Assembly (NCBI GenBank): GCA_918292005.1
Contig: CAKJZJ010000006.1
Location: 6,598-70,597 of the forward strand
DNA length: 64,000 nucleotides
From: Clostridiales bacterium
GTDB lineage: Bacteria; Bacillota; Clostridia; Christensenellales; UBA1242
Reading direction: 5' to 3'
This document shows positions 6-40,448 of the stretch, piece after piece (the stretch's first letter is position 1; each line of letters begins with the position of its first letter). The notes beneath the pieces were generated by a model. It was not told the origin of the DNA, did not search any database, and worked only from the letters and a program-made list of their open reading frames with translations. The position numbers were made by a program, and so were the translations under genes.

Positions 6-3000
6 GTGGTCGTATCTGATACTGATAGCAAGACCGATTTGGGTATTGATATTTCTGGTGGCGAAGGCTTTGTATCTACCAAAATAAAGTATTTAGACGG
101 TGGCGTCACCGAGATAACAGTTCAGCCAGTTTCTCCATTAAAAACAGGTAAAGTTACACTTACTGCTACTACCAAAGAAGGCAATAAGTCATACAATATT
201 GATTTAAATATCGATCTCAAATTAAATAGTTTTTCTTTTAAAGAAAATGCTCTAAAAGCCATTGCTAATGGTGGCCAAATAGACCTAAAAAATATAGATG
301 ATTTTATTGAGTTTTATCCTGCCAATACCACTCAGAAAAACATCAAATTTGATATAAGCGTACCAGAGAATGGTATGCAAAATGTCAATGGTACTACGTA
401 TACTTATGACCATTACATGGGTGATGGCAAATATGGTAAATATGCTAGTATTATAGACAATCATATTTTGAAAACCTACAAAACATATACCGACGGACAA
501 TATAAGAATGAGGCTATGGATTATCCTATTACCAATGTTAGTGTGGGTTCTTCACAAACTATTGCTACCAAGGTAGTTACTCTTTCTGCTACTTTTACAC
601 CTAAGAGTGGATCTAGGGCTCCAATAGTCGAATATTGTGATATTGAAGTGGTGGATGAGTGTACTAGTGTTGATGTTAAGATGAATAGCCAGACCAATAT
701 CAATGGCGAAATATCTCTTACTCCAGATGTAAATGGTGTGTATGAGATTGTACTGTTGGACCCTAATTTTAAAGAAGGTATGTTGGGTGTAGATTCGTCT
801 TATTACATTCGTAGACAATTACGCTTTGATTTGAGTCCAGAAGTGGAGGGTGAATACAATCCACAGGATTATGAGATTACTTCTGATACCATTTTGGAGA
901 CAGATAATCAGCCAGTTGTTTTGTCTAGTATTGCACTTAATAGTGATTATGTAGTTCAGGCCCAGAGTAAGGGTGTCTATACTCATAGATTTACCATTAG
1001 ACACATCAAATATCCAGGACTATTTGATAGAGATGTGCTTGTTAAATTTATAGTAAAAAGTATACCTACCAAAATTGGCTTAAATGATGAAGAAATCGTA
1101 TTGAATACCATGGGCGATAAGGTTTACACCATATACGATTATTATCCTAGTTGGTCATATGGTACTAGATTTAAAGTTCAATTAAATAGTGACTTCAAAT
1201 ATTTTGTTTACTTCGATGGCGAAAATGACACAGAAATATTTGATGCAGTGAATCTATATAAAAGTGACGGCTCCTTACAGAGATTTGGATTGATATCTGA
1301 GAGTACAAATGGTGGCATGGATATTGTGTCTGCTACAGGTGAAGGGGAGTGCTCTAGATTTAGGAATGAGAGCTTCTATCTCAGTCATGCTTTGACCACG
1401 CTTCCAGATATTGATATTGGATTGAATGTCGGTGTGGATTTTTCCATGATTGCTGATAGTTATAGTGAAGAATTAGCACAAGAATTCTATACATCTGTGC
1501 TTACTTTCCCATTCAGAATTAGATTTGAGAATGGTATTAGAAAGATAGCATTTACGAATGCTGAATATCACGTTGATCTAACTAATGATGCATTTGTGGT
1601 TGGTAGTGAAACTGATGGTATCAAATTGTTCGAATTGCCACAGGGACAGACTCGTGAGTCTGCTATTGCTAGCATTACCTACAATGAAGATTTGGTTTCT
1701 ATTTATTCTACTGTAGACGAAGACACTAGAATCGCTTCTTTCTACCTAAAAGCCAATGCGAATTTGATTGTAGATAAGACTGTTGTTAGAGTCACTGCAA
1801 ATAATGGTGTTAGTAATTCTGCCGTAGTACACACTTACATTCCTACTGCTTATTATAGAGTTACTCCTGAGACTCCACAATTACCATTAAGTGTAGAAAT
1901 TAATAAATATAGTTCTGCATACTTGTATCATTTGAATGGTAATGTTTTGGATGAAGAAGGTAATCTAAAAGTTGAAGATATCAAAGAAATGAAAGATACC
2001 AATGGTGTATATAATGATTTCGTTTTGAGTGATAATACGGGTATTGAGTGGGGCAGGTACAATTCTGTTGGTACACTTTATTTGATTAATAATGCACAGC
2101 AAGAAATTCGTTTCTATGACTATAGATTGGGTTATACTGATGATGACTATTTCGATAGACAAATATTCCCTATAGATATTACGAATAATGTCAAGGTTTC
2201 ATTCAATTACAATAATTATGTTTCGTATAGAAATGGTGTTTTGACTACTAATGACCGTGTTACTTTGAGCCTAACATCTCCTATTATTATGACAATCAAA
2301 TACATTGGTGCACATGATGAATTAGATGCTCAAGGTCAGGTTGTTTTAGACGATAATGGTAATCCTACATATGTTCTTTACGAAGAAGTTCATACCATAG
2401 ATATCTACATCTACGATCCACTAGAGGGTGTAGAAGTTACTACTTCCAAACAGGTAGAGATCTACATGAGAGATACTCTTAGTTATTACGACCAAGCATT
2501 GTCCGAGGGTGTTATTAAATCTACATTCGTACCAGACAAAATCAACCTTGGTTCTCAATGGAATGAAATATTCCTAGATGGTGAAGGTGGGGAAGAAAAT
2601 CCTGTAAATTCAACTATAAATATGAAAGGTTCACTAGGTGTACCTGTTGAATTATTGTATGATTTTGAGACTACATTGCAGAATGTTATCATGAAAGATG
2701 ATGGCTCTCAATTAATAGTATATTCTGATAGTGGTGCAGAACATTATGAATTGCACTATATGGATTTGTTTGAGGCACAGTGGGAGTCTTATGAATGTTA
2801 TGTTGTCGCTAGATTACATGATAATCTAAAAAGTTGGATAGATGAATATTATGGTGGTAGGACTGATGCATTCCTAAAGAATATATTTACCAATGATATC
2901 ACACTTACCATCTATGTATCTATCAGACAATTTGGCAAATTGCAGAATATCAATTCGGTTAATTTTACTGCTAAATATGCAAATAAAATAGGTGGTATTA

Positions 3001-6000
3001 GAATTGATGCAGATAGTGATGGTGTATATTTCGAAGTAAGAAATGGACAAAGTAGGCCAGAGAGTATTACATTGAATTACACTATAGATACTGCCGAAGT
3101 AGCCAATAGAAATATTAGACTATACAATTTTGATACTTCCAGTTATCATGCTACTGTTAGGGTAAATTCTCTAGGTAATGGAGGTACTATTACCATAGTT
3201 CCTACCAATGTTTGTGGTGAAAACTACCTTACTATAGTTCCAGAAGACAATATTAAAAATATTACCGATAGTGGTGTGGTTTATTACAATCTCAATCTGG
3301 TCAAAACAATCCGTGTGAAAGTTGCCGATGGATCCGAAGCATATCCTTTTGAAATTAGAAATACAGAAGAGTATGCACAGATGCTTCGAGATATTGATAA
3401 TAATCAATTATACTACTATATCGTCACTAGGGATATTAATCTATCGCCACTGAATAATAGCTATAGAAATGGCAGTGCCATCAAGGATATTCCACATGGA
3501 GATGGGGTAGGTTATTTCTCTCTTAGTGGTAGATTGGATTATTACAATCACGATGGTGTACTGAGTACCAGATATAGCTCGCTATACAATTTAAATATTA
3601 ATATGACCATGAACATTCCAAAATCTAATATTGGTTTGTTCGGTAGTTTTGGCAGTAATGTTACAATCAAATATTTGGGCGTAGCCAATGCTAGTATTAG
3701 GGTAACTATACCTACAGCATATAATAGTGATTTATCTGTTGGTATTCTTGTTGGTAGTTCTGAAAATGCTACGATTATTGGTTGTAAAGTATCTGGTTCA
3801 ATCAGAATTAATTCTGAGACTACAACGATATATTCAAGTAAGGCAAGAATTGGTGGTATGATTGGTTATTCCAAAGGAACTACTATCAAAGGTCTACCTG
3901 GAGATTATGAAAATGGTGTAGTCACTACTGGTAATAATGTAAATTGTAGTCTTGAATTAAACGGCTTGTTAGGAGCTACACAGGTATATGCAGGTGGACT
4001 AGTAGGTTACGCAGATGGTACATACATTGGTAATATTAATGATAATTCACAGGGAATACAGATTTTGTCTGTTATTGCTACATCTAATATTCTTAGTGCC
4101 CATCTCGGTGGTGTTGTAGGGGGTATGGTAGGAGGTTACATTTGTGATGCAAAAGTATATCCTACAATGAATATTTCTAGCATGTTAGACCATGGGGCTA
4201 ATGCAATCATTGCTGGTGGTATTGTTGGCAAAATGGAAAATGCTAGGATATCATCATCTATTGTATATTTTGTTAATATCGGTGAAGAGTATGATTGGAA
4301 TAAAAAAGCCAATATTCAAATCAACGTAAATAATAATACGACTACATTCGGTGGACTTGTTGGTCAGATGCTGAATGGTGATAATCTTGCTACCATTGAA
4401 TACTCTTACGTAAGAAGTTTCTATAATTCTATAATATCCAATACATATGCAGGCAATATAGTTGCTAATATTACTAGTGTTGATTCTGCTGTCGGTGGCT
4501 TGGTTGGAAATGTTCAGAGTGGAACAATTACATCTAGTTACTTTAATGCAGATATACTCACACGTAATAATGTGTCTGTTGGTATGCTGGCATCAAAATT
4601 TAGTGGTAAGATCTATAGTAGTTATGCAATAGGAAAGTTGTATACATTTAGTGGTATTTCTAATGATAATGAATTGATGAATTTGGCTGTTGTTGGTGCC
4701 AAAGTACAGGGAATGGGGGTTATCTCTGGACTAACATTTGGTAATAATAATAACGTACAATATTCGGGAATTTACGAGTCTTATGCAATTATTAATGAGA
4801 ACGATTATTACATTCTAAACTCAGGCAATGTAGAATATTTTGAAGGTACAACTATTGGTAATACGAAAACATGGTTTAAAGAAGAGTTGGGCTTTGCTAT
4901 CACAGATGGCGGAAGTACCGAGCCATACCAGTTTGTTAGTGATATTGAGAATCCTGCCAATAATTCTAGATGGTTTATCAATGACAATGCTAATAAAGTT
5001 ATCTATTTGGGCAATTCAAAGCCATTCCCTATTATTCTAAAAGGGACTAAGGCTCTATATGATTTGATTCCTACAGGTATGAGTACGCAGATCAATGAAC
5101 GTCCTACTCTATTTGATTTGACTTATGCTGGAACAACCCAAGTAATGATGTATTTAAATTCCGATGCTGATGGTAATACTGTTAAGGCTCTTTATGAGAT
5201 TTCTGTTGATAAGGCAAATCCTGCAATAAAAATTAAATTAAATGGTACAACAATTATTACCGAATACATTAGAATTGATTTGAATGATTCTATAGAAATA
5301 TCCGAAGATAGCGATGGAAATATTATTAAAATTAATGGTAGTAGGATTGAACCACAGAGTGAAGGTGTAGCAATCATTACGGTTCGAAGTTATCTGGATA
5401 AAACAATCAAATGTGAAATTTTAGTGCAGGTAGTCAAAGGTATTACCGATTTTGAGATAAAGGATACCGATAATAATGCTTTGCGCTATGCTACAACCAA
5501 TTTTACAGGATCGGCTGCTACAGTTTGGGTAGATGAGACATCATATTATACTTTATCTACAATCAATAAAATTGATGGTTTCTATTATCCTAGCAATCAA
5601 GATGTAGGATACATAGTAGAAATATTGGATGTTACAGATCCAGGAGATCCTAGTATCAAGAATGCTAAAATCAAATTAAATAATAAAAATCAATATTGTT
5701 TTGATTCGGACGCTCCTACTAATAATGTATTTAGATTAAATGCATCCAATATAACAATGAGTGGATGTGATGTGGGTTTGTTCAAATTGAAATTTACTCC
5801 ATTTGCTGTACTTAGTCCAGATATTAATTACACGTCTACATATTATGATGTGAATGGTGGAATGGTTTATTTCAGTGGTATTAAGGTGCTAGATATTAGC
5901 CACGAATATCTATTCAGGTCGGCTTCTAGAGCAATGTCTATAGAGACCAATATTCCTAATGTAGAATTAACTACTAGGAATACAAGTAGAATAAATATTG

Positions 6001-9000
6001 CATTTGAGACTAGCAATCTGGTATTTACAGAATCAGCAGAACCAAATATAAAAATGATATCACTCATTCAGATCGGCAATAATGAATATGAAGGTATTAG
6101 TTTCTTAGGTAATACGTTTACATTTGAGAATGTTGCATTTGTAGAAAATGGTGGCAGATACTATGCCGATGAGAATAGTGTTCTAGTCAATAATTCTTTA
6201 ATTAAAGATTTTGAATATGAATTGATAAATGTATCGTTTAGAACTATTTCGATTGAAAAAACTAATACGAATATTGAAACCAGACTAAATACTTACAAAG
6301 TTTCGTTCGATATTGATATATCTTTTGATAAAGAATATTATAGGCAGAATGCAGATAGGTTTGATTTAAATAATGCTAATTATGATGTTGTATTTACACC
6401 TAATAGTAATCCAAGTTTAGGGGCTACATGTCGAGTTGATATTAGACCTGCAGAATTAACAGGTATATTTGCAAATTATTATTCCAGAGGCGAAAAACTC
6501 TTAACGGAAGGCACCGGCGATGCTTATGATATGACAGAGATAGAAGGTATGTATATTGTACCTGGTAGAACTGGTATTTTGAAATTAACCCTAGGTGAAG
6601 AGTTTAATGATAGTAGTTATATTACAATCACAACCAGCAATGATAATATGAATTATCTGCAAATGACTCAATTATATGGAATTATATCTAGTAATGATGA
6701 ATTAGGTGATTTGGGTGAAGTAAATAGTTATGGATTGTATGAATATGCTACACGACTAAATTATCCTAATACCTATGGTTTGCAATTGTCGAAGATGTCT
6801 ATCAACTATCTTGATAGGAGTTATTTCAATAATACCTATTACGTTCAGATAGATCTTAGCAGAGATTATGGTGATCTAAACACAATTACATTTATTGTTT
6901 CTTCTTACACAAGAGGTTTAAACAATGTCAATACTTTGAAACTTGATAAACGCTTTACGTATAGAATAGCCGAGATACCTATGCTTAATGTAACAATCGC
7001 TAATGATAATTATGTGGACATGAGTGTGGGTACGGAGAGACCACTTGAGTTTAAATATAGGGGAGTGAATAGTGATCTTAGTTATTCAATTGCATTTGAT
7101 GGCATTGTAAATGAAGATATTTCAGACTATGTATATATTATAGACGATGAGGGTAATAGAACATATAATACGTTATCCATAGATTATATTATGTCTGGTA
7201 GATTATACTATATTAGACTTGATGTATCAGTCGTATTTAATGATAACAACTTGTTCTTTGATAGATTAGGACACCTAATAACGATTATATTTAGTGTAGA
7301 AGAATATGTTTACGGTAGGCTAGAACATGCTACTAGCAAGTTGGAAATAAATCCTGTTGAATTTGAAATAGAAGACGTAGTGATTTGTGGTGCAAGTAAT
7401 GGAGAGCTTACCATTCTACATGGAGAACGCAAAAATTTCACAGTAAAAATCATATACAAAGATATCGTCATAGGTGATGCTGAATTATTGACAAAATATA
7501 ATCAGTATTTGAATATATATTTTGGTTATCAAAGTGAAGAATTGGGTAGAATTGAAGCATTAGAATATAGACTGGCTAATACCTCAGTAAAAGACGAAAC
7601 AGGTAATAACCTGGTAGTTAGAGCAAATTATCTCAATGGATATATAGACGAAGATAATTATTCGCTTATTATCGATGGCATGCACAATGGCATTAGGGTA
7701 AGTGATGATAGTATGTCTGTATACGGCAAAAATAATAGACGTCTAGAATTTGAATTCAAATATTTCAAAGGCGTTGTGTTGTCTAATAATACCAGAATTA
7801 GATTAGAAACTCACTATTATTATGATAATAATGGTAGGATAGTGATTGGTTTTGGTGATGAGAAATATAATTATCCTATTACTAAAGATTTAACAATTAT
7901 AGTCAAAGATAATTCCAGATATGATCATCCTATTCCTATTGAAAATCAATTAGATTTACAGAGATATTCTACATCGCAGGGTGGTAACTTCATATTGCTT
8001 AATAATATTGATTTGTATGATTGGGTACCACAAGATGCTACATTTGATTCGCTAGATGGTAATGGCTATAAGATTACTTTGCATAGTCTAAAGCTAGAGG
8101 GACTTAGAAGTGGTGATGTAAATATTGGTATATTTAAAACCACATCAGAGACTACTTTGCTTAAAAATATTATTGTTGATGTTTCACCAATGTTAATTGA
8201 TTCTGTTGAGATGCTTAATAATATTTCCGTCTCAGAAAATGCAGTAGCGAATGCATATTCATATCCAGCTGATATAGATTTGAGCCTAGTGGCAAAAGTG
8301 AATTTTGGTATTTTAGTTGGTTCTAATGCAGGTGCTATTACAAATGCTAGAATTATTAATACTGCTATACCAGAGAGCAATAATGCACGCATTTACTTCC
8401 ATGTTGTAACAACACAAGGATATATCAATAATGCACTTGCTCAATCTAATATTGGTGGTATTGCTGGTGTAAATACAGAAACTGGTGCTATTACAAATTC
8501 CTATGTCGGTTTAAATATATCTACAACTACGACAGGAGAAAGTGGTGCATCGGCCACCATTCAAATGATTAGTAGTCCTAGTAAACTAGAATATAATAAT
8601 ACCAATGATAGTCTATTTGCTGTTAATACATATCCATTCGTATTGGCTGGTGGAAACAATTTGGCAGGTATCACAGCAGTGAATGATGGTATTATTAGTA
8701 ATACATACAATAAAGGTATGGGACTATACAATACATTCCCATATTCCGAAGATGCCAAGACGGGTGGTTTGGTGGCAACCAATACAGGTAAACTTACCAG
8801 TTGTTATGTTGAAGGCTCTGAGATACAAAATTATAGAGCGTTAGACAATGCCTACAGAATAGAGGCGATTGGTACTATTGGTGGATTGGTTCATACCAAT
8901 ACAGGTATAATTGAAAATGCATACAGTAATGCATATCTGGAAACACAATCAACCTTTATCGGTGGCTTTGTATATTCTAATTCGGGTATTATTCACAATG

Positions 9001-33500: not shown

Positions 33501-36500
33501 GGTAAAACCATGGATAGTAATTATGTTGCTGGCGTTATTGGTAAGATAGATACATCTAGATATGCTAATTCTGTGACAATAAAAGCAGGTACTCTAGCTA
33601 ATAATGGTGAAGTGTGTCAAGTTTATGGCTATTCTGCAGGTGTAATATCATATATAGATAGTTCTAGCAATGGACTTGTAGTAGAAGTTGATAATATTAG
33701 TAGTGTCTCGAATATTGTTGGTAGAGATGGTTGGAATTACATTGGTGGTTTGATTGCTTATGCAAATGCAAATCTAGTAATTGGTCATGCAGAGTTAAAT
33801 AATAATAATAGTGAAAAAATTTATATTTCTGGTAGTGATAAAAATACTAGAGAGAATATTGGTGCATTACTGGGTTATGCAAAGAGTGTAACAATTAGTA
33901 GCGTAACATTAGACTCCAATACTGTTGAAATCGCTCCTAGGGGAAAAATTTCTGACGCACAAAACAATGCCAATATTGTTAATCAAGAAGTTGCTATTGG
34001 TGGATTATTTGGTAGAGTAGAGAATGACCTTACATTTAATCTAAGTAGTGACTTTACAGTAGATAAAATTAGATTTAATTGGATTACAGACGAAGTGGCT
34101 GCTACTAATAAAATTGACTGGAATAATGTTGGTGGTATAGTAGGTAAAGTCGGCAGACTCAGAATCATAGTAACGGGTAGTGATTCGAGAACAATTACCA
34201 TATCCGATAATAATGTCAAGGGTATGGGATATTTGGGTGGTTTTGCTGGATATGTTGGAGAATATCAACAGAGCAACCTTGCAGCAATTACTCTTAATAA
34301 TGTAAATGTTACAGAACTACCTGCAGGTAACAAAAACGATTATGCAGGATCTACAACTAACGAATTATATTTCACTAGTGTCGGTGGTGTGTTTGGTTAC
34401 ATTTCGAAATCTTTCAAACCTGTTTCAACGACTATTCCACCAGTAGAAATTTACAATATTACAACTAATGGTGGTACTATCACTGGTGTAACCAAATACA
34501 TTGGTGGTGTATTCGGTAGATTAAATAATGCTCAATTGTATAATGTTTACAATAATAATACTGTCTTAGGTGACGTCGTATCTGCCCAATTTGTTGGTGG
34601 TGTTGCTGGTAGAGTAGGTAGAACGGCAGCATTAGATGTAAATAATGGTGTAATAATTGAAGAAAGTTATAAAAATAGATCGTATCTAACTAGCATTTAT
34701 AATACCAAGACTGTTACTGGTAGTGTCCGTGTTGGTGGATTGTTCGGTGCTCTATATAATGCAGATGTGGAGAGATATAGTGTTTATGATGTATCTGAGC
34801 CTGAATCTCTAAGGATTGGTTCGGTAGATGGTGTAAATCATGCTAATTATATGGTTGGTGGTGTTATTGGTCATGCATCATACGTATACATTGATAATAC
34901 TTCGACACTAAGTGATAATAGTAAATACTCATTCTATGGTAGTCTGTATGGTAATAATCTAGTTGCCGGTATTATTGCTTATGCTCAATATACCAATATT
35001 AGAAGTGCTAGAGTAAATACTGTAGACTTTAAGGTAACAGGAGAAAACACTGATGATTCGCTTGTATTTAGTGATGGATTACCTAGTGCAGGTGGTGTAG
35101 TTGCTTATGCGGTTGGTCTAGATACCATCAATTACATAGATAATATTGATGTGATAGTAACCGAAGTTACACAAATTGCTTACGATACTCCATTTGTTAG
35201 ATTTGGTGGTGTCGCTGGTGCAACCGATCATATGATTATCAATGAAGTTTCTGCTAATATTGATGTATCAATTCAGTCGGGAATCTCTCAGGATAATATT
35301 AGGTCCATTGCATTTACTATGCAGAATACATCCAAAAATAGTAACTGGTATGTGAACCATTATGTATTCTATAGTGGTATTTCATTTATATCTGGTGACG
35401 AGGGTAGCAATATTACACTTGCTATGATATATGATTATCAATCCAGTCTAGATGCAGAGCCATTAGATGCAACATTTATCAATATGTCTAATACTGCAGT
35501 TTATTATAAATCTGGCAATGGTGCAGGTGAGGGCAAGGTAATGTACTATGACCATGGTCTTGCTCAAGGTTTGAAACCAATTGACGACGATATTGATGTA
35601 TTAGGTATATTCAATGAGTCTGCTCTTTGGACAGTATCATATGCTAATAGCAAATATTCTTTGACATTTGCTAGTGACATGCAACAACGTGCTAATCGTC
35701 TAGAAATAGCCGATTCTGCAAATAAAAAGGCCGGTTATGATTATGTCTATGTAGTAGATGATAATATTATTGGTGTAAATGATGATAATAGATTCTTGTA
35801 CTTATATTCTGCTATCAATAAACGTTATGATGTTGAAGGGATAGAACAAACAAAAATTTTAATTGATGTAAAAACTAATATCAATAATACCAAAAATACT
35901 ACAGATGGATCATTATGGTATCAGAGTCCAATAGGTACATATCATTATCCTATAGGCAAAATTACCATCAAAGGTAATGGTCATTCTATCAGAATGGGTG
36001 CTAAACTTATTCCAGGTAGTAGATTTGGTTCCGATAGTGTTTTATATGATAATTATGGCTTATTTGGTCAGGTTAATGAAAGTTTGAATATTACTGGTTT
36101 GACGATTAATGGTTCGTCTGCTCTTACTATTGGAGATACCCATGTAACAACATCGGATGTGCGTGATGTACAAAAATCTCTAGGTATTATATCTAGTAGA
36201 CTTACTGGACAAGTAGGTTTAACCAATGTAACTATTAATGCTAATATTGGTATCAGTGATTCCATGTACACTGCGGGAATTGCTGGCTATGTAACAGATA
36301 GTGCTATTACCATGAATGGTGTTACAGTCAATAGTAATATATTTGATGAAGATAACATTGGTACCAATGATAATATATACACAGCTGGATTATTTGCTTA
36401 TCTAAAGGAAAATGTAGATATTGTTTTGATTAGTAATGAATCAAAATATACAGGGACTCTACATGGTCGAAATTTAGCAGCTGGTATTGTGAACCATATG

Positions 36501-39500
36501 GATAAGAGTATCAGTATCGAGGCAAAAAATAATAGCGGAGATACTATTGAAGATAGATTACTTATCAATGATGGTCAAATATATGCTCACGTAGGTGTAT
36601 CATTAACGTCACTTGCTGCTGGTATTGCAGCACAAGTTGTAGGACCTGACATTCTGATTTCCAATGTTCAGAATGGTGAAAATGCCACTATTAATGCAGT
36701 AACATCTGCTGGTGTGGTAGGTGTAATAGTAGGTAATCAGTTGGAAATTAGACATAGTACAGTACTTGGCACGATAGGTTCGGCAGATAATACTCAACAT
36801 GCGAGTGGCTTTGTAAGTCGCGTATCGTTGACTACAGGTACAGGTGCGGTTGAATTGGTATTTGACGAATGTATCAATCACTCTGCTATCTATTCTCAAG
36901 ATGCAGTTGTCGGTGGATTTGTATCATATTCAAGTGGTTTGGGTTCGATTAATTATACTTTCAATAATTGTCTAAATAAATCGAATATTGATAAACTCGC
37001 TATTGAAGATTCAATCGTAGGTGGTCTAGTTGGTAAACTATCAAATGGCGATATGATCACTATTACGGATTCGCAGTCGGTAGGCAGTCTAAAAGCACAG
37101 ACTGTAGGTAGCCTTATAGGTTATGCTCTTATTAGAGACAATATGCCTAATATTTACATTAGTAATGAGATGGCGGAAGATGATTATACCATTGAAGGTG
37201 CTATTGCGGGTGGACTGATTGGTTGTATAAAGATGTTGACTCCAACTGCCAATCCTAATACACATCAAAATCAATTAGTTATAGATCCATTATTTGATGA
37301 TGGTGCAGTGATTGCAACATCGTTTGCTACGACATCAGAGCATATGAGCGTGGTTGGTACAGAATGTGCCGGTGGCATAGTTGGTAAATTTATTGGAAGT
37401 ACTGGTGCCACATTTGCATTTACTGATATGACTAATAATGCTACAGTAACATCAAATACTTCTGCAGGTGGACTAGTAGGATCTTCTAGTGTGGTACAAT
37501 TATCATTTACTAATTGTTGTAATACTGGTACAATATCTGCCGACGACAATGTTGGTGGTATAATAGGACATACAATCCAAGATGATATAGTCGAGATTTC
37601 ATTCGAGAATACTACAGTATCGGGTAATGTAACAATTACAGATCCAGACGGCTATGCTGGTGGTGTCATTGGTTATACTGACAATGTAAAAATTAGTGGT
37701 AATGTAGTAGTTTCTGCAGAAATTAATGCTCCTAAGAATGTAGGCGGTGTTGTTGGTTTCGGTGTAAATGATTTGATTTCTATTGAAGCATTAATAACTA
37801 GTGAATTGTCAGGTGAATTTGTTGGTGGCTTGGTTGGTATTGCTGGACCTATGTCAATATCTGAGTCATCTGTATCAGATGCTATGATTAGTGCTGATGC
37901 AGATGTTGGTTATGCTGGTGGAGCAATTGGTATGTATCATAATAATTTAGGATATGAACAGAATTTCACAGTCGAAAATACTACAATCTCCAATTGCTTT
38001 ATAACAGGTAAATATGTGGCTGGTTTGGTAGGAAAATTGAGTGGTGATACAACTATGATAATTATTACAAACAATACTGTTAGCGATATTACACTCACAT
38101 CTACCAATGGTAATGGTTATGCTGGTGGATTAATAGCCAAATTAGTTGATCAGTATATTTGCAATATTAGGGGGAATACCATTCACAATATTATCTTTAT
38201 TGCCACAGACAATACTACGGAAACATTCAAGACCTACTATGGTGTGAATGATTCTATTGTAAATATATTCTGGTACACAGATACGCTTAATTATGTTACA
38301 GCAAATCCTGCTACAGGTGATTCTGGTTATTCCTATCATACATATGCTACATACGGTGGTGGTACAGAGACCAGATCATTATCGTATGGTAAATTTACGG
38401 CTTATGGATTCGTAATAGGTAATAATCAGAATTATGATGCTAGCAATAATTTGGATACATCATACACCGTCGATATGGACTCTGTAATAAACAATGTACC
38501 TATCAGTACGGATACGTATTATACTATCAGTATCCCAGGCGAAACGGTCTACAATGCTCCAGCTGTTGACTTGGAACTAGTGTCTAATAGTCCTGAGTAC
38601 AATCTAAATGTATTACAACAAAATTGGTGGTCTACAATATCACAAAGTTCTGCTTCGGCTAAAATGTTATATCGTATAACCAAAGTAGCTAATGACTACT
38701 CACCAATAGATGTTATTTGTGCCAATCTTCAGGAACAAAGCCCATCAAAGAATGTTGGATTTATGGCAGGTGTTACCGAATATTCAGGCAGCTCACCTAC
38801 ATACAATTCCAGTGCTTCTTCGATGCCTTTGTCTTACAGTAGCACAGGTATTAGCAATACACATGTAGAACTTAATGGTAGTTCGGCAGAGATTTATGGT
38901 AAAATTCTTTCTATCTATGACTCCAATGGTAAAACATTGAGTCAAGATAGAAAGGATATAACCAAATGGGCAATGTACACATTTGTCGGTATTGATGGGA
39001 ATAATAGAAATTCGTCAAATTCAAATTTCGAGTATGAATCGCAACATGTCAACTTCTACACCAGTGACGTGTCTAAATGTAATAATTCGTATGGTGGCAT
39101 TAGATATTATGATTGGAGTGGTACGGGCATTAGATACTATTATATCAACGACATAATAAATGCAGTAAGAAATGGTGCAAAGGGTGGAATATCCAATAAA
39201 GATCAAGCAATAGCAGCTAATGCATATTGGACTACAGATTGCTGTGGCTTTATTAGAATGGTTTACTTCGCACTAGGTTGTGGTGTTGATGATGGCAATG
39301 ATAGCAATACTCTTCATGGTAATGTGGTTAGAAATTATCCAAATGGTAATATTCGCAGATCGATAAATGAAGTCAATGGTAATTTTTATGACAACATTTT
39401 ACCAGGGGATGTAATATATTCAGTTGGATATGATGTTAATCACATTCTCATGTTTACGTACTATGAGAATGGTATTTACCATTTCGTTGACCAGTCCAAT

Positions 39501-40448
39501 CGAGATAAAGAAGCCACTCTTGAAACGGACAATAATAATACTAAATACATAAAGATCGTAAATGATTCAAGGCATTATTACAATTACACTTCATCTTCAG
39601 ATATGTATTCATCTAGAAATCCTAATAATGTAATGGGTAAGAGCAATAGGGAGTTCTACCCAGATTTCTCAAGTAAGTGTAAATATATCTACGATCAGAT
39701 AGATAGTAGGTATATGGATCTCAGTGAAGAACGTCAGAGAATACTGGAATTCATGATATATACATTTAGCAATATTTCTGCTACTGAGAATGATGGTAGA
39801 CGTACTAAATCCAATTCTAATTACAAATACAATGGCTATGATAACGACATAGATGTAGATGGTGATGGCGAAATTGACTATAGTATATTCAATCTATACT
39901 ACGATGATAATACTGACACATCGGGCAAAACCATTCTAGTAGAAGATGGGATACATTATTATATGGATGGTAGCAAGAATAAATATTGGTATATAAATGA
40001 TGTCGTAGATCATATTCGCGAAGGTGTAAGATTGCAAGCAAGTCAAAGTTTGTCTTATTCTAAGGCTGTTGGACTGAATGCCAATTGGTTGACAGATTGT
40101 TCTGGATTTATTAGAATAGCTTACTATTACCTAGGATATGGACTCGTTCTGCGTCCATTCCCAGATACTCAGGGTGTATATGATACTTGTGATAATATAG
40201 CAAATATTCTACCAGGTGATGTAATATTTGTTAATAGGCATGGTACAGAAGGACAGGGGTCTCACATACTGACATTTACATACTTTGATGGAGAATACTA
40301 TCATGTGATGGATGAGAGTCATCTAGATAGAAAGATGGAACTCCGTACTGATGAAAAGGGACATAAGTATTTAAGTTTCTTGTCAGGGGATACTAGGAAG
40401 TATTATGATTTCTCGACTCCAGAGCAACTTATGTCATATGCCAAATAA
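15483..40448 (+). CDS. Giant lipoprotein B (8321 aa): lipoprotein signal, Ig-like segments, many GLUG/beta-helix modules, two C-terminal NlpC/P60 (CHAP-like) domains
   Basis: Uninterrupted 25-kb ORF with its own promoter and terminator. N-terminus MKNWKKYLTLIIVMFVSLVGFFA-C24. Repeated VGGLVG/IGGIIG rungs and W-x-P-I-G..F-x-G-x-L-D-G caps. C-terminal TDCCGFIR..LPGDVI..HIL and TDCSGFIR..LPGDVI..HIL motifs. Confidence 0.9.
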   Translation: MKNWKKYLTLIIVMFVSLVGFFACKSKDVYAGLKIEIVGTSDNITEESDGVYAITLAENNEDNVFTLRVKVSGVNDSVSSSLDFSVDDPSLVYTVNSKQVGNNTTEASFRVNNSSANLSNSTIVHISSEGNKSISFQLKINIPIRDFVVRDNIIPVVRGEQTQLALSENYIDFYPSNTTYKDLKLTAIPISGMGGINDDDIERINDLIAQSGNSTLLIPEGTAVQSFILNLESKYNENISHSAIVNVLDRPDVTKFSLTQQKLHEEDYTLLETNNNENLLTLVINSDAYYNYHHAKVQLNYDGNANVFTNPVDRNYYKYDTDGHIVEFGSPTYSVYIKNHMTNNSVYVLDENGIMSKTSPNKIGALYNDGSIFGTNIVTAQKLDQASTFEFFQASRDGEYEVTFIIDYAGYEGMFRATEYTMKVQTKTFPSSIKLFRSKSELNDVQNVAEAEDLHDKQLTLYSNGLGTEIVVGVWGDSGYLSRQPVAVTVDDDNVDGVELLCGGKILSGDDNICNSGDLISVRKVGETNNTVTIKFTSTIYKDVVREYVFDVVKENTIITANNTEITLDPGAFNEHVNKTIQLVADEYLSVTGLPLVDGVIDYSVMTITVEGGINNKYISVPQYDEDVGDWIVNVYNSIGKTRITYRTPNGIEVTKELSIYYPISGDNAQFVKMQITNFENVRMPGKKFKFEATSTIQSTTETANKTKLLSGATYNYYYLLGDGADSEYVYTSLDGILSVARPTSSNENVITIDNASRSITVKGYSPDDVLLQFAYTTLYGAERVTIYICISVQIEKMIDSISVSKYLIDDMYDADTILPYAKDSDGVRYYDKYCVKELSVSFNPITATTSPTIEWIPLNSDGVPMVKPRNEDYYTFGTTGVKVYVDSTSINGESISFHVNGIPTDNKQTSFAMKMLVMVTQSFISSSGVKINNYVLSQTTDIVVHLAGRVKDISTKLFNNSITFDVRDMEFDATNEIYISNNESTFEYELTSKDYNNDAPVLDILNKDIAVYSSSDILHTIYNDNRINLKYLNSSADYISYPVYKVYVAANDSLTRELDGNFTIRDIYEYYSIVSVITVKIANGKSVPFEVDSYEDLLRIGKDEESMSANYVLTQNIYLKNHTWTPLGGYNSVYTGPFEGTLDGKFELTEGVYRQFGIYNLKINIDMSSVLPSDDQLREFNYGFFAEIGENGRVVNLNISDIYIRVTGFDSFQNGVYDNVGVIAGTNKGTIQNCTIDDGSVQYIDGKQKIQRRLNGVVVEERKDQFALNSSSSGEMRGIFYNTASMDTSSTITRAFVGGLVGKNESNILSSKAVTTIIARNIGSNKYLYVGGMVGFNIGSVENHSSFVPSSDNDSYDVVSIINPHMITSLTGAYDMYGGAIGINAGDIIGVTARTFVFGTGYVGGLVGYNVGRVESNITIPTLIGHKVTGGLIGKSSYGEDSILPNTLSGSNVIKSNKVQFIDFQDSDDRYSYFNTAIKGYGAIGGLIGEYYTRYNVNGQVFVFSENIDGEDTGVFAYNSVASYYNAPVVTATYSRDSQAGYYYGDIVSDSTSAIIGGLIGRADNGVLVVHSYVDVNISGDCTIGGIIGSAGGIVSLFNTVFNGSIVYRNDSTIKAGAFIGSVNDTFNTYGLDTLQQVIKLASGESVDSFFIYRDAADANPNTNNVSVVITDDSKYVNGLVISGAGETFTFGNFVYSYAIMRYRKDTVDVINGSVSSENGYINEYISNPNKIITPNNVATYVTIRLQDENNIIYGSEAIVTNYLAYNSFVVDGYASTDPINNANVLFGTNYANKIRIYIPGDHGAGVYIDVSTGGFTAHRTNVSSEYIGVYQSDENTESGYADGDRDELINYLKFAHTQINSGLPLPFAEGRVYYSDSKDFVDLIINLPPTTITIGGAESILDHSRTNDNVWTANEIGAHDNYVDLTPVENTIYFYGLDYNSGAFSYEYDNDGNVIIDFNNDGMYSYLDITYSEWLRNAIASKNIYSLSDTVGIAVWPPFLQKGMLVFESSNEDIAQIIIVNGQLSLQVKGVGSVTFLVYSAYNVDNKATFTINIVDAIEGFDFYTDMTYDQKVNAENITIIKNESTNQIIYVDFNGKFDHGNVYLNSYNKVDLLLDHQDNYGIRYFVMTDNSILFTGNTTCTSLRINGKSFSRMYLSGYGKEGYALYVDGKDSIAITGLEKQSNIKLLAVPYIIHSNGNITFMFDFSTNRPQDAISNNRLSRAKILTINVIDGTYAIKTTESQDITPLNTANIDVLVSTDDATNMLFFKVQYADPNLGTSARNVTVYSDINKINPAQTSHSQVTIYEADVNGYVNAVVGNTYYFDGMEMLLYSVEKLDANNEVTNIDDNIKSIVYHFAIGVGESHLFDEDLVKAYNFEFCTLSKVNSDTINYLKATTCVNVLRQEVNSSIIKHYSGVDQYVENIDAVYENTDYFESRTLVAGYPGMLQVNLFPQYSSIDYVEFTSNEINGYYIAMEQLVAVYDSSNTYFDGYYRAYTDTREIINNGRGIRVKKTSTMYTQNGQDIYSYNGTFYIRTVVPTITLGTTEFTITYKSYFKGVVQPEGSGEIKIIVVKNPAVTLDVVDDDNKTTKVGVATFGETMQLKYAAEREIEWNISAKDSNFEIDNVLRELSPVIVDGNTATISIKSISEIGGNYAQYVGKVVTISATVSMVVQGRLYYTTASVDLKLAVIKINAIKVNNVDENTLNFVGVYNQTYDLKVTVVATFDHAYDTSTNGSISSAITALEYDLSTSNRVFRWVSGDNEYTLETKPYVDFLIGKHNDYFTIKNNKKNPHSKFNAYAEFGHSIISSTGKSYEKFGLFLNPSTVNSNMIVRSKNQRFGMQFSRLSNEEYPEPIYTVDELINMEQGGYYILLNDLTLTDWRPLDTAIASLDGNGYVITIGSFFDTRIQKAQEDAAAAASDEEEQNKESEITIGLFSTISENTTIKNLIIEVLASRENETKDQQITINYDNVTNRVADHDIPIADYESVRFGLLAGENNGIVTNVVVTNNANAQRIERKSILASSNVIDNSVLNKETNRRTTTIYLNYGSITSTAVKNRIGGLVGVNNGFISNSSVNNITIKGLDCVAGFVAENTNTISSSYFDGGHVYAQVSAENTTTLGASAFVFNNTGKIYYSYATGRAVNQSNNFDVSNIDDFFGTSYTFKDPIRNLGSAVYSESGNVTGFVFTNSGVIEDSYSNILLFGNNVAGFVHTNSGVISNVYTLSSIRESNSNNHPFISLSNNNLTTNNSGTIKSAYYLRVDDKDINSTFNKTGHSDRYNIDETLQIALPISVAKLSSYSTFESFAFNANNDNPNDDVLPAIDEVVRSVWFYPHAEVTDTGYFRNKQYNKAAPELVSANLNNLSLKYYTSDNVFSVQESVYSGLLQTIPQIKIFRNDIDVDITEVSPARLCALTDKDRDSVLLDMRAYIDLSEVNSNIKARYANLNSTILDESVITLYNVNVYVSEDEYNTLNDDVNGISINAIKDIQSRILNMGIGENYAYIRVIYTLGDAPDQINNYEYSSVLENSRGISIEYGNSVLNPYLVKTSRDINVFIRQTDDEGSSLLEDGNNANYISKSYLRLINDVSYNKTDLTAKTFNIIFTGLLDGNGMQISNLRINASTTISSNAINKQIASNYSEDDYYELSGREYEISDNHVTINGVTYTVSNGKVLNGTVEFDEKYIIKDNKVQLIRSATSLGLFAKVTSGGTVKNIKVGVSEVYGTGVNFVGAIAGQAIDARLFNITLTQESNDTVIYGYNIVGGVVGRISGRSNVVNVTSELSVISNYHSEYNLFDPKTNINLNLGENGVNGYNMYIEPSRIGDVYTPSNFNVVSIAGGIAGVIDLTRSSDGSENTDGTDGYGLGKIRNTTVQNGFEIVGEIVGGLYGYIGHDTVVSLGKVFVDSNSKLNATRVAGGIAGVLRHEIARSYVSNIESTQAEIDQSISQIVTNTEQIYGDKINSSGAHEFYAGNPYFIGGLVGINLAGTIRDSYNRVDVINLNSCYAGGLIGLNYGGTLHSVYTTADVYAFYGIGGIVGLASKLVDAGTYNSIVSNEQNPKDLDYKFMLSNYDQVYGTFTDNGNLTLNVEGVVAMNLWTLEHLNTRRHHININVANCYIGTIVGKSTIGTPITTSEDRIFVETIYSIVTYTFDSINAYSSSSSKNTFNEFRLVPDIGNIAPYEWWNYDGSFVVDSNTGEYNTIQVDTSITITQNASKKYEIESGTYTYSGNIVEYKYDSNGNSDAKITITRNAHFSRIREYSSVVSLNEILSRIYIADSAKNIDSRLGASNVNDLENCESGEIHFDIGENKTLNDGKYTTQLIYDTNHWDESVWMGIGVNPSTHSKTDDYILPLHAIRLDDSDVNVYTYDDLLRVNHFPNRTYKLMNDIEVPDGAKPLASTGNPFTGKLVSNVTNNDHPEKYKIIMHSMSSGTSLGLFAAVKGATFSNFELIVTQPLTITTSINGATAAGALFGYGYSKGYTPVVIDNVKVTYSKTSHLCEFNNGSSVNDDGKIVTAGNNYSASYIGGLGGYVASVIMTNVTVEGTDISVAGYTDNDHNYNMFIGGLFGHAGIGGDISTPSDDVNIINPTITLGGVEFAAGGYDTLAVGGAFGRVVSTNTVNSNNISKFKLQYPVVSVDIRAHENIHTHKSEFVNFDTIGIGALAGIIEGLPAGITFQIASNSGEKLITKNGVNSGSVTVNNGGVYASSTTSGLGNISVGGVFGQIGSRDKGNVSLSNIQYDLASVTYNHSNSAHHLDSTMINSDVNVGTFAGSIISCNSSISNVIGETILNWTASEADSVTLNIGGAVGKVLSGTLDHVIISQNISSSAQVNLGEKTTANIGGLIGKYLGGLVGRSGYNGTISLVLDNNHNLNAELNVGGIAGYVNNYDAISQVFASGKIIVDDNTNNFEDIGISNVGGLVGCVYDNVHINDSYSSNTIDMLNKYGAVSGIIGRVIISNANAIINNVNDNISITDTYTISNIILTRTAHHMSGVGGIVGMAVSTDGYDVESYIIQDTAYYLAEFVVDNNSIGTGLSVEQMLFSGESFMANTSCWSVAANKYPILSWMNDGYGEYIDSRLQPETTGGIQAGKAYILTSPMTLGTLNNNDIYYNLGSAPDVNTLQINTIDKYSRVYGIRVGNASSSSGIIGTNNGKVTATQISSITAGNYIATNNGIDINPMISSVASGAKVYGTLDGYAVYASVNGLSGVFTGNGTGMVMLSVVKGNVNALNGLQVRDSYIDNGTQIQYYNNAGTKLALMSYEDATNVFNFDTGFDFYNDWIILPCSDTDSNAEKVNRHFGRVFLRWELKLSISELGHWYSEDIDIYSDNQTAYKNYVWNNYINAKDVFNSSNIVIRDNSVTIKTPAGLAYFAKAVNHGEYKDKNITVRISLESSQTSLDMGNKLFTPIGGALLLGHYNNNYFAGTFSNANITNLLILTNYNAGLFGTTAGSFGNITISNSLILTTSASLGALAGVVDRANGSTNGITVSHTALLHTMQNTEMAYVGGVIGELKLSTYNLYNISLSSGDAGLHIHNGTNVGGAIGYITDSNVDIGKIANTVDVFGQDAVGGIVGYIDDGCQGTSSVSIHVAETYSYASISSQSYAGGLIGYCASQIQFSVCYNNSAVDGEYSAGFVGKFDSDYIAFNDCYVTRGDVTDYNGDTNAKNYRNEAYTITNMNDSNITGTHISSFANVENVHAIVSFHQAYASFARLVASNSGSQIINLVNQGSVSYYKTFLFDISVSNDVEINDNNLNRINHYKLSETNNNIFDGWYSRWTRISQKNNNYPCLLFGSDVFWSSDIAPRLVSNSVYEVNSVEQLAYIAEQVNSGRDFYAGKTIRVVADELDFQKKLWNPIGINEINSFQGTMEFIGTGNGVTIINLTTNGYYDTSATTLDPLWDNVGLFGYTKNAKISGRSITFETYQLTDEEGSHILGAGNNIAALIGCATNTNIDFTGDITNNLSVQGCGSNIGGIIGLYQITGSSSSSYTFKLTGGMTNNGRISGDLTGKTMDSNYVAGVIGKIDTSRYANSVTIKAGTLANNGEVCQVYGYSAGVISYIDSSSNGLVVEVDNISSVSNIVGRDGWNYIGGLIAYANANLVIGHAELNNNNSEKIYISGSDKNTRENIGALLGYAKSVTISSVTLDSNTVEIAPRGKISDAQNNANIVNQEVAIGGLFGRVENDLTFNLSSDFTVDKIRFNWITDEVAATNKIDWNNVGGIVGKVGRLRIIVTGSDSRTITISDNNVKGMGYLGGFAGYVGEYQQSNLAAITLNNVNVTELPAGNKNDYAGSTTNELYFTSVGGVFGYISKSFKPVSTTIPPVEIYNITTNGGTITGVTKYIGGVFGRLNNAQLYNVYNNNTVLGDVVSAQFVGGVAGRVGRTAALDVNNGVIIEESYKNRSYLTSIYNTKTVTGSVRVGGLFGALYNADVERYSVYDVSEPESLRIGSVDGVNHANYMVGGVIGHASYVYIDNTSTLSDNSKYSFYGSLYGNNLVAGIIAYAQYTNIRSARVNTVDFKVTGENTDDSLVFSDGLPSAGGVVAYAVGLDTINYIDNIDVIVTEVTQIAYDTPFVRFGGVAGATDHMIINEVSANIDVSIQSGISQDNIRSIAFTMQNTSKNSNWYVNHYVFYSGISFISGDEGSNITLAMIYDYQSSLDAEPLDATFINMSNTAVYYKSGNGAGEGKVMYYDHGLAQGLKPIDDDIDVLGIFNESALWTVSYANSKYSLTFASDMQQRANRLEIADSANKKAGYDYVYVVDDNIIGVNDDNRFLYLYSAINKRYDVEGIEQTKILIDVKTNINNTKNTTDGSLWYQSPIGTYHYPIGKITIKGNGHSIRMGAKLIPGSRFGSDSVLYDNYGLFGQVNESLNITGLTINGSSALTIGDTHVTTSDVRDVQKSLGIISSRLTGQVGLTNVTINANIGISDSMYTAGIAGYVTDSAITMNGVTVNSNIFDEDNIGTNDNIYTAGLFAYLKENVDIVLISNESKYTGTLHGRNLAAGIVNHMDKSISIEAKNNSGDTIEDRLLINDGQIYAHVGVSLTSLAAGIAAQVVGPDILISNVQNGENATINAVTSAGVVGVIVGNQLEIRHSTVLGTIGSADNTQHASGFVSRVSLTTGTGAVELVFDECINHSAIYSQDAVVGGFVSYSSGLGSINYTFNNCLNKSNIDKLAIEDSIVGGLVGKLSNGDMITITDSQSVGSLKAQTVGSLIGYALIRDNMPNIYISNEMAEDDYTIEGAIAGGLIGCIKMLTPTANPNTHQNQLVIDPLFDDGAVIATSFATTSEHMSVVGTECAGGIVGKFIGSTGATFAFTDMTNNATVTSNTSAGGLVGSSSVVQLSFTNCCNTGTISADDNVGGIIGHTIQDDIVEISFENTTVSGNVTITDPDGYAGGVIGYTDNVKISGNVVVSAEINAPKNVGGVVGFGVNDLISIEALITSELSGEFVGGLVGIAGPMSISESSVSDAMISADADVGYAGGAIGMYHNNLGYEQNFTVENTTISNCFITGKYVAGLVGKLSGDTTMIIITNNTVSDITLTSTNGNGYAGGLIAKLVDQYICNIRGNTIHNIIFIATDNTTETFKTYYGVNDSIVNIFWYTDTLNYVTANPATGDSGYSYHTYATYGGGTETRSLSYGKFTAYGFVIGNNQNYDASNNLDTSYTVDMDSVINNVPISTDTYYTISIPGETVYNAPAVDLELVSNSPEYNLNVLQQNWWSTISQSSASAKMLYRITKVANDYSPIDVICANLQEQSPSKNVGFMAGVTEYSGSSPTYNSSASSMPLSYSSTGISNTHVELNGSSAEIYGKILSIYDSNGKTLSQDRKDITKWAMYTFVGIDGNNRNSSNSNFEYESQHVNFYTSDVSKCNNSYGGIRYYDWSGTGIRYYYINDIINAVRNGAKGGISNKDQAIAANAYWTTDCCGFIRMVYFALGCGVDDGNDSNTLHGNVVRNYPNGNIRRSINEVNGNFYDNILPGDVIYSVGYDVNHILMFTYYENGIYHFVDQSNRDKEATLETDNNNTKYIKIVNDSRHYYNYTSSSDMYSSRNPNNVMGKSNREFYPDFSSKCKYIYDQIDSRYMDLSEERQRILEFMIYTFSNISATENDGRRTKSNSNYKYNGYDNDIDVDGDGEIDYSIFNLYYDDNTDTSGKTILVEDGIHYYMDGSKNKYWYINDVVDHIREGVRLQASQSLSYSKAVGLNANWLTDCSGFIRIAYYYLGYGLVLRPFPDTQGVYDTCDNIANILPGDVIFVNRHGTEGQGSHILTFTYFDGEYYHVMDESHLDRKMELRTDEKGHKYLSFLSGDTRKYYDFSTPEQLMSYAK
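38890..39620 (+). other. NlpC/P60-CHAP-like domain 1 of giant protein B (Cys7920, His7987, Asp8003)
   Basis: WTTDCCGFIRMVY...NILPGDVIY...NHILMF...YHFVDQS matches the DCS/CG..PGD..H pattern of the NlpC/P60 superfamily. Confidence 0.75.
39660..40445 (+). other. NlpC/P60-CHAP-like domain 2 of giant protein B (Cys8206, His8261, Asp8277)
   Basis: WLTDCSGFIRIAY...NILPGDVIF...SHILTF...YHVMDES, with the same 16-residue His-to-Asp spacing as domain 1. Confidence 0.8.

Follow-up and report, generated by a model that had tools for sequence, protein, structure and literature searches.

This analysis concerns two giant genes, here called A and B, in a 64,000-nucleotide stretch of DNA from a Clostridiales bacterium (GenBank assembly GCA_918292005.1, contig CAKJZJ010000006.1); ‘the window’ refers to this whole stretch. 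In our numbering it is G000:C6:6598-70597, where G000 is the genome (1,206,167 bp in 19 contigs, ~34% G+C, rated 96% complete with 0.5% contamination). The first 40.4 kb of the window are two open reading frames (ORFs) on the same strand, A and then B (Table 1); together the genes occupy 40.5 kb, or 3.4% of the 1.2-Mb genome. The proteins they encode are ancient collinear paralogues, which share a long stalk and differ in what follows it.

An original prediction, made without database searches, had described A as running off the 5' end of the window. It does leave the window there, but it is not truncated in the genome: the gene begins with MKKKLALLILFIGSIFGAFAC, and the full protein is complete at 5,179 residues, with its own signal peptide and lipobox-type Cys. 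In A and in B alike, the only strongly hydrophobic 19-mer is the N-terminal segment, and it ends in that Cys (...GAFAC with Cys21 in A, ...GFFAC with Cys24 in B). The arrangement of K/R, a hydrophobic stretch and Cys recurs in all 45 A-family and all six B-family proteins; 41 proteins match a regular expression for the lipobox, and four have W at position -2. The residues before the Cys (F/W/V, then A/G) depart from the textbook consensus, L-[AS]-[GA]-C. Lgt (PF01790, 186 bits), signal peptidase II (LspA; PF01252, 112 bits) and two penicillin-binding proteins are encoded in the genome, so lipoprotein processing and a peptidoglycan wall are to be expected. What one looks for in a lipoprotein, a signal peptide with a lipobox Cys and the genes for Lgt and LspA, is thus present.

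Each gene is followed by its own terminator-like hairpin, as predicted, and the numbers expected from shuffled sequence are small (Table 1). The companion claim, that B has its own promoter, holds only in part: a near-consensus -35/-10 pair is present 5' of B, but promoter-like sites in the intergenic stretches are no more numerous than in shuffles. Logan contigs of two sequencing runs, possibly those of the source samples, cover A and B without differences and break at 15411-15466, in the AT-rich intergenic stretch; the A-B junction is therefore not independently bridged by them, and the evidence for the tandem order is the deposited contig together with 11 other genomes (see below). Contigs of another study's run (X6) join the short segment 15392-15466 to other sequence; it is probably a low-complexity stretch common to several organisms in the metagenome. 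A misassembly or spurious ORF is ruled out for the genes themselves by intact orthologous frames in dozens of independent assemblies.

Collinear paralogues on a common stalk

Comparison of the two families by hhalign, with 45 A-family and six B-family rows, places A2-4541 on B5-5000 in a single alignment of 3,829 columns (20% identity, E 2e-144). The 29 other alternatives returned are off-diagonal matches between repeated modules, with E-values from 2e-14 to 2e-5. BLASTP of A against B gives the same picture, a collinear chain of four significant high-scoring segment pairs (HSPs), A2-227/B5-197 (E 4e-10), A1191-1616/B1068-1579 (E 2e-6), A2237-3107/B2395-3233 (E 8e-25, 24% identity) and A3244-3843/B3541-4129 (E 2e-15), plus a weak one, A4387-4540/B4820-4953 (E 0.03). 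All 11 off-diagonal HSPs are weak, with E-values of at least 5.8e-4.

The single main diagonal is what the original prediction had called for, on the strength of ten pairs of short landmarks in A and B. All ten pairs occur, once each and where it had located them, and hhalign aligns nine of them residue on residue; the tenth (VYYAQEFV at A4591, AYYLAEFV at B5018) lies 50 and 18 residues, respectively, beyond the end of the alignment. Its statements on age have also held up. At the DNA level there is no obvious identity, since blastn finds only one 31-nt match (E 6e-4). In a FastTree phylogeny of 93 stalk segments (midpoint root, some long branches), an A clade of 46 A-type and 13 longer A-like sequences is separated from a B clade of eight B-type and 26 B-like sequences by branches with support 100. 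As the A-like proteins fall into one clade and the B-like proteins into another, the duplication predates the divergence of these groups.

The recognisable building block of the stalk is the GLUG motif (PF07581). It exceeds its Pfam cut-off of 20.5 in both A (22.6 bits, chunk 3603-5102) and B (25.2 bits, chunk 27183-28682), and several more matches fall below the cut-off. Blocks of GLUG-core motifs stand at matching places in the two proteins: at ~1200-1600 in both, at ~2800-3200 in A and 3000-3200 in B, at A3400-3800 and B3600-4200, and at A4200-4600 and B4400-5000. The blocks are separated by long stretches without the motif, which is also absent from the first ~1,100 residues; these spacers give only two sub-threshold immunoglobulin (Ig)-like hints in Pfam. 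Sequence conservation peaks in the central stalk, where A has an identity to its orthologues of ~0.40-0.51, versus 0.24-0.40 in its other parts.

In B, GLUG-core motifs continue densely through B5400-7600. The B-only extension (~2,600 residues) has off-diagonal hhalign matches to A modules, as well as partial matches to a hidden Markov model (HMM) of the stalk at B5495-5624, 6159-6309, 7222-7427 and 7465-7554. Searched as a single sequence, the stalk has no match among PDB sequences, and NCBIfam holds no family for either tip or for either N-terminal stretch of 1,100 residues. The idea that A and B might be IgA1 proteases is rejected: neither Peptidase_M26 nor any other IgA1-type protease domain is found in Pfam scans of the whole proteins and of 500-residue chunks, at E <= 0.05.

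Table 1. Coordinates of the features of the A-B locus, in window positions

Feature	Position	Strand	Remarks
Gene A, part in the window	1-15248	+	ORF; start at G000:C6:6306, 292 nt 5' of the window
A part collinear with B	1-13331	+	A99-4541 in the window; homology from A residue 2
A central stalk, best conserved	7914-10973	+	A2736-3755; cap motifs SLDGNGYKI and FAGNLDGNGM; 25-row alignment
A-specific tip	13332-15245	+	A4542-5179; predicted two more β-helix modules, no enzyme recognised
Terminator-like hairpin 3' of A	15257-15284	+	11-pair stem, then T run; shuffles expect 0.2
Promoter-like site 5' of B	15376-15404	+	TTGACT-17-TATAAT; 11 of 12 consensus positions; weak
Gene B	15483-40448	+	ORF, 8,321 residues; lipoprotein-type precursor
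B signal peptide and lipobox	15483-15554	+	MKNWKKYLTLIIVMFVSLVGFFAC, Cys24
B part collinear with A	15495-30482	+	B5-5000; hhalign and landmarks
B central stalk, best conserved	24030-27599	+	B2850-4039
B-only extension	30483-38282	+	B5001-7600; dense GLUG-type β-helix modules
Linker/pre-tip	38283-38861	+	B7601-7793; AlphaFold2 model unusable; not conserved in five database B orthologues
NlpC/P60-type unit 1	38862-39608	+	B7794-8042; predicted catalytic core ~7880-8008; TDCCGFIR ... NHILMF ... YHFVDQS
NlpC/P60-type unit 2	39687-40445	+	B8069-8321; TDCSGFIR ... SHILTF ... YHVMDES
Terminator-like hairpin 3' of B	40449-40478	+	13-pair stem, then T run; shuffles expect 0.1
rpoB and rpoC	40702-48074	+	Pfam; downstream neighbours outside the A/B system, used as synteny marker

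A genus-wide family with variable distal ends

Database searches return 45 orthologues of A, 4,461-5,466 residues long and 39-46% identical over the central stalk. All but one are full length and can be aligned with almost all of A, tip included; 39 of the 45 align as a single HSP, and the remaining protein, P0039, is 5'-truncated and lacks the first ~830 residues. B has seven orthologues at 40-47% identity, five of them full length (7,621-7,933 residues). More distant sets comprise 13 A-like proteins of 5,654-7,860 residues and 26 B-like proteins, many with Listeria-Bacteroides repeats. The named relatives are all from uncultured gut metagenome-assembled genomes (MAGs), labelled Clostridia, Clostridiales, Christensenellales or ‘uncultured Christensenella sp.’, and the sources given in record titles are human, goat colon, roe-deer caecum, reindeer and mouse. 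Outside gut MAGs, only single modules of 150-200 residues are matched, for example in Paenibacillus and Cohnella.

The genus itself is represented by 41 species genomes of 0.7-1.7 Mb. Family members are detected by the stalk profile in 37 of these and in 26 of the 27 of high quality, typically as two separate ORFs per genome that range from ~4,600 to 10,545 residues. The predicted conserved family of giant scaffolds is thereby confirmed. With B4200-6999 as the query, 13 other genomes yield strong orthologues, and E <= 0.001 is reached in 17 of the 41 (G000 included); the open frames of the B orthologues in those 13 genomes are 6,163-8,752 residues long, the shortest being partial. Of 18 same-genus genomes searched for the A tip, 7 have it; of 12 genomes from other families of the order, none does.

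The tandem itself, A then B, recurs in 11 other genomes. In G005, G013, G014, G018 and G004 it is seen as A followed by B on one strand by coordinates, and in G031, G037, G041, G046, G049 and G032 as an A stop followed after ~200-480 nt by a B-type lipobox start. Twelve loci were taken for a look at the DNA downstream of B, and two of them end at contig ends; in all ten that continue, an rpoB-like ORF follows, usually with rpoC after it. The A orthologue of G005 (L059; G005:C7:219831-223832, minus strand) has one in-frame TAA within its tip, which leaves pieces of 715 and 672 residues in the stretch retrieved; it is either a pseudogene or the product of a sequencing error. The original prediction had also suspected more paralogues upstream of A, and this has not been borne out: the 6.1 kb from A to the 5' contig end hold only small unrelated ORFs. 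Among G000 ORFs of at least 1,000 residues, the stalk profile matches A, B and one other, a 1,716-residue protein with an A/B stalk module (G000:C9:108489-113636, minus strand; stalk HMM E 1e-16), in which residues 70-313 and 1324-1502 are partial stalk matches.

Beyond the collinear part, the two proteins go separate ways. The last 638 residues of A have no on-diagonal match in B, the best off-diagonal one being to B3093-3225 (E 2e-6), and homology of the A tip to the start of the B extension is rejected on that ground. No Pfam or NCBIfam family matches the A tip. An AlphaFold2 model of A4541-5179, built from a 10-row alignment, has a predicted local distance difference test score (pLDDT) of 74-89 over tip residues 440-600. 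With VIA-align, tip residues 442-639 superpose first on 3n6z_A (Z 14.1, root-mean-square deviation 2.9 Å, 183 residues aligned), and residues 118-384 on the β-helices of IgA1 proteases (7uvk_A, Z 13.6; 7jgj_A, Z 13.2); many β-helical lyases, tailspikes and adhesins follow at Z 8-12. Foldseek returns only generic β-helix enzymes, at TM scores of 0.12-0.16. Judging from the model, the A tip appears to be two more modules of the stalk's general kind rather than an enzyme. This agrees with the prediction that A carries no recognisable enzyme: Pfam finds none, and the tip model superposes on β-helix structures.

The tip of B is different in kind. Its last part, unit 2, scores 33.4 bits against Pfam NLPC_P60 (PF00877; cut-off 23), which bears out the ‘amidase tip’ of the original prediction, and a second, paralogous copy, unit 1, lies upstream of it (phmmer 5.7e-14, plus alignment). 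Six units from five genomes share the motifs W-x-T-D-C-[CS]-G-[FY]-I-R, P-G-D-x-I and Y-H/I-x-x-D-Q/E-S. The Cys and the His are invariant in all six aligned units (TDC[CS]G[FY]IR; GH/NH/SH-x-[LTV]), and we take these residues to be the papain-like catalytic ones of NlpC/P60 enzymes. In the B units, the order of motifs follows the NlpC/P60 series of Cys...His...His/polar. In agreement with Pfam, unit 2 has its nearest ESM Atlas clusters among small NlpC/P60, Amidase_5 and CHAP proteins (scores of 0.91-0.92). By these sequence criteria, the B tip belongs to the NlpC/P60 family.

The units are very divergent members of that family. A search of 1.84 billion representatives with B8040-8321 finds only two proteins at E <= 0.001, one a 673-residue protein without a Pfam family and the other an FG-GAP protein that matches via a short low-complexity-like stretch. 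An HMM made from the two units of B alone found only B, and phmmer together with a six-unit HMM was used for the relatives. Outside the B units, Pfam detects no NlpC/P60 match anywhere in G000. No Pfam NlpC/P60 match is found elsewhere in the tip-less relatives G013, G031, G041, G014 and G018, with the limit that this model fails to pick up the divergent tips of G037 and G004 as well. A search of ten genomes of the genus turned up a single canonical small NlpC/P60 gene, in G046 (G046:C32:2911-3192, plus strand; 359-residue ORF, 93 bits); located on a small contig, it may be either a genuine housekeeping gene or a contaminant from binning.

How constant are the distal ends across the family? 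In a six-row alignment of the B family, identity falls to 0.04-0.08 after B7600, with 51-100% gaps. The last 300 residues of 52 family proteins form 31 BLAST clusters, so the homologues do not all end in identical C-termini. An NlpC/P60-type unit is found in 5 of 18 distinct B-type orthologues: G000 has two units, G005 (= P0068), G004 and G037 have one each, and G036 has one together with a Pfam CHAP domain (34.6 bits). In G014, the B protein stops at the point from which those of its close relatives, G037 and G004, continue into the enzyme tip. On a tree of the distal stalk (a quick search, with long branches), the enzyme tip requires four state changes, of which strongly supported branches force at least three, and it is no more clustered than shuffled labels are (207 of 500 shuffles as low).

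A further 33 complete family proteins, drawn from elsewhere in the genus, were scanned over their last 700 residues. None of these tips has a Pfam enzyme domain; the only matches are to GLUG (15 tips) and Flg_new (one tip). The six-unit HMM finds the unit in one of the 33 (G043:C1, 8,747 residues, E 1e-8), and BLAST clustering adds two more tips, G006:C1 and G017:C1. Over all tips, NlpC/P60 and CHAP are the only enzyme types recognised, and most tips show only GLUG motifs. The distal end is the variable part of these proteins, and as far as sequence goes the only recognised ‘cargo’ is a predicted wall hydrolase, carried by a minority. The non-enzyme tips may have arisen by domain swapping or by fast divergence. 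Of the original idea of modular distal cargo, the difference between distal ends stands, in view of the 31 clusters and the unit in 5 of 18 orthologues, while ‘cargo’ is too strong a word for the family in general.

Neighbouring genes and other giant frames

Downstream of B, Pfam identifies in order rpoB, rpoC, S7, EF-G, EF-Tu, nusG, L11, L1, an ABC-F ATPase and L10. Two plus-strand ORFs of 330 and 507 residues without a Pfam family (48737-49729 and 55350-56873) sit within this otherwise textbook region of rpoBC, S7/EF-G/EF-Tu and nusG. The order of the ribosomal-protein cluster is unusual at 57678-62698: rpoBC precedes S7/EF-G/EF-Tu and nusG-L11-L1, and L10 is split from L1 by a 165-residue minus-strand ORF and the ABC-F-type ATPase gene. 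Just 5' of A, outside the window (G000:C6:5359-6103), we recognise by eye an acyl-carrier-protein-like ORF and a SpoIIID-like small DNA-binding ORF, with a hairpin and a TTGACA-like site between them and the start of A.

A and B are two of six ORFs of at least 3,500 residues in G000, which together make up ~9.7% of the genome. The other four are at C11:6170-36931 (plus strand, 10,254 residues), C15:2769-27440 (minus, 8,224 residues), C7:47249-58015 (plus, 3,589 residues) and C5:100-10698 (plus, 3,533 residues). Neither BLAST (1e-5) nor the stalk HMM relates any of them to A or B. The giant on C7 begins with a lipobox-like LLLASAFITAC.

Possible functions of A and B

We propose that A and B are giant surface lipoproteins that act as contact fibres, and that B bears a wall hydrolase at its distal end. 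To this reading as a whole we would give an even chance; surface display, fibre shape, enzyme activity and target are all inferred. Both proteins would be exported by their signal peptides, anchored by lipid on the N-terminal Cys to the cytoplasmic membrane, and would project through and past the cell wall as long, mostly β-structured fibres. Each fibre would consist of right-handed β-helix modules of the GLUG/IgA1-protease-N-terminal type, alternating with the motif-free spacers of unconfirmed fold. Over its first ~4,500 residues, A has the same scaffold, in the same order, as B over its first ~5,000. A would end after its two further β-helix modules, most likely as a binding fibre without enzyme. 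B would add ~2,600 residues of modules and end in two papain-like NlpC/P60 units with intact Cys/His motifs.

With the usual geometry of β-helices and Ig-like domains, 5,000-8,000 residues span ~0.1-0.3 μm. By this estimate, B would hold a peptidoglycan hydrolase ~0.1-0.3 μm from the producer's membrane, beyond the Gram-positive wall. There its enzyme would act on whatever comes into contact with the fibre; the walls of neighbouring bacteria would be the most plausible substrate.

Several observations weigh against this proposal. The core function of the pair cannot be wall hydrolysis, since 13 of the 18 B orthologues have no enzyme. Where the enzyme is present, it may possibly act on the producer's own wall, for example in cell separation. 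The lipoboxes are atypical at -3 and -2 (F-A-C, F-F-A-C). The structure models cover ~1,360 of the 13,500 residues of A and B, and the spacers lie outside them; a PDB search with the stalk profile returns only 3n6z, at an insignificant E of 0.36. The A tip has no match among PDB sequences, its model is of moderate confidence (mean pLDDT 57), and β-helix matches at Z ~10-14 are common to many unrelated lyases and tailspikes. As for B, unit 1 reaches 16.7 bits against NLPC_P60, below the cut-off, and neither the profile of the tip nor unit 2 alone (E <= 10) matches any PDB sequence. The AlphaFold2 model of B7600-8321 (5-row alignment) has a mean pLDDT of 38 and is unusable, so the NlpC/P60 fold is argued from the sequence.

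The fibres may instead be purely adhesive or structural, forming a ‘fuzzy coat’ for attachment to host mucus, dietary glycans or other cells, in which case the B units would serve the producer in wall turnover or daughter-cell separation, or as a far-end wall anchor. We regard this as a possible but somewhat unlikely alternative. It would account for the many family members without a recognisable enzyme, including the 33 further tips without a Pfam enzyme domain, and the fold of the A tip also matches, besides lyases, the adhesins PfbA (Z 10.7) and Ag43b (Z 8.6). Since the B units are the sole NlpC/P60 domains in the genome, the cell might moreover need them for its own wall. Most of the tip-less relatives, however, do without any other Pfam NlpC/P60 domain, which suggests that there is no such housekeeping need in the genus, and with 7,800 residues of fibre before it, the enzyme is in a poor place to work on the producer's septum.

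The distal variability of contact fibres of the kind we propose also invites comparison with polymorphic contact-dependent toxins. B would then deliver its tip in the manner of CdiA, Rhs or LXG proteins, with A as a helper or receptor-binding paralogue. Hypervariable C-termini on a conserved stalk (31 clusters among 52 tips), the collapse of B-family identity past B7600, and a discrete enzyme unit that is gained and lost repeatedly and in one orthologue accompanied by CHAP are all consistent with such a system. We nevertheless consider it quite improbable. There is no slot for an immunity gene, as a terminator, a promoter-like site and rpoB all lie within 254 nt of the B stop, and rpoB also follows B in all ten relatives with downstream DNA. 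No tip matches a pre-toxin or toxin Pfam family besides NlpC/P60 and CHAP, no dedicated secretion partner is encoded nearby, and the variability may be the ordinary fast divergence of a distal adhesin.

That A and B co-assemble along their shared 4,500-5,000-residue scaffold into a hetero-oligomeric filament, from which the B extension protrudes, would fit the retention of the pair in the same order in 11 other genomes, the two separate full-stalk ORFs in most genus genomes and the strong conservation of the central stalk in both proteins, but it is very improbable given the separate terminator-like hairpins, the promoter-like site of B and the location of members on different contigs in several relatives (e.g. 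G017, G001, G010 and G052), and the keeping of two old paralogues is equally expected if their targets differ.

Compared with known systems, the contact fibres proposed here combine familiar parts in an unfamiliar way. GLUG/β-helix proteins such as 3n6z (BACOVA_03286, a ‘putative immunoglobulin A1 protease’ of Bacteroides ovatus) resemble A and B in that both score above the GLUG cut-off, and in the model the last module of the A tip superposes on 3n6z and the one before it on the β-helices of streptococcal and Gemella IgA1 proteases (7jgj, 7uvk). Unlike these proteases, A and B are 4-6 times longer, are anchored by a lipobox, have many modules with long non-GLUG spacers, and contain no M26 metalloprotease domain that we could find. 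The tip of B resembles the NlpC/P60 (PF00877) and CHAP (PF05257) hydrolases of Bacillota and phages, with unit 2 above the cut-off and the order of motifs kept, but its units end an 8,321-residue lipoprotein rather than a protein of 170-500 residues with LysM or SH3 wall-binding domains.

With CdiA and other polymorphic toxins, the family shares a conserved, long, presumably β-helical stalk, variable C-terminal ends and an enzyme unit that comes and goes. It differs in being lipoprotein-anchored rather than exported by two-partner secretion (TPS), in having GLUG modules rather than FHA/haemagglutinin repeats, and in that most tips have no recognisable toxin; Pfam scans of A and B find no TPS/FHA, Rhs/YD or LXG domains. 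Nor is there a downstream immunity gene: the 254 nt before rpoB hold only the hairpin and promoter-like sites.

A further comparison is with giant proteins of Omnitrophota and other phyla, which have been implicated in cell-wall degradation by predatory bacteria in a preprint whose accessible text also describes Clostridia proteins of 10,000-30,000 residues with Listeria-Bacteroides repeats, from mammalian gut metagenomes (bioRxiv 10.1101/2023.11.21.568195). As described there, the likeness would lie in giant β-helix proteins of small-celled or small-genome bacteria with a proposed attack on the walls of other cells, whereas those giants have many transmembrane regions and SecA-like domains, and A and B a single N-terminal signal and lipobox. 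The accessible text does not mention GLUG, NlpC or the A/B family, and a search of the literature on giant proteins and Christensenellales did not yield a description of this family among the papers listed. Reduced-genome Christensenellales without many biosynthetic pathways are reported in the accessible part of another study (PMC12306168); this serves as ecological context only.

The known parts are the GLUG β-helix modules, the lipobox and NlpC/P60. Specific to A and B are a genus-wide, anciently duplicated and often tandem pair, the lipoprotein anchoring of predicted fibres of 5-10 thousand residues, a position 5' of rpoBC that is fixed in the B-type subclade, and a wall-hydrolase head that is gained and lost. 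A sober reading is that they are one more family of giant GLUG β-helix surface proteins. A reduced genome keeps two paralogues of 5-8 thousand residues intact across nearly the whole genus, so the organism must depend on them.

Taken further, the contact-fibre proposal would cast the bacterium as a small-genome gut Clostridium that depends on partners, as an epibiont or a predator, and A and B as its contact apparatus, with A as the shorter attachment fibre and B as a lipid-anchored lance of ~0.2 μm with exchangeable wall-cutting heads. We think this improbable; if it were true, the pair would be a Gram-positive, lipoprotein-anchored counterpart of CdiA and the Omnitrophota giants, kept beside rpoBC genus-wide. 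The NlpC/P60 head that comes and goes is in any event a natural experiment on the grafting of enzyme domains onto fibre scaffolds. If A and B do mediate contact between microbes, they would be the first concrete lead to the lifestyle of these uncultured, reduced-genome, Christensenellales-like gut bacteria.

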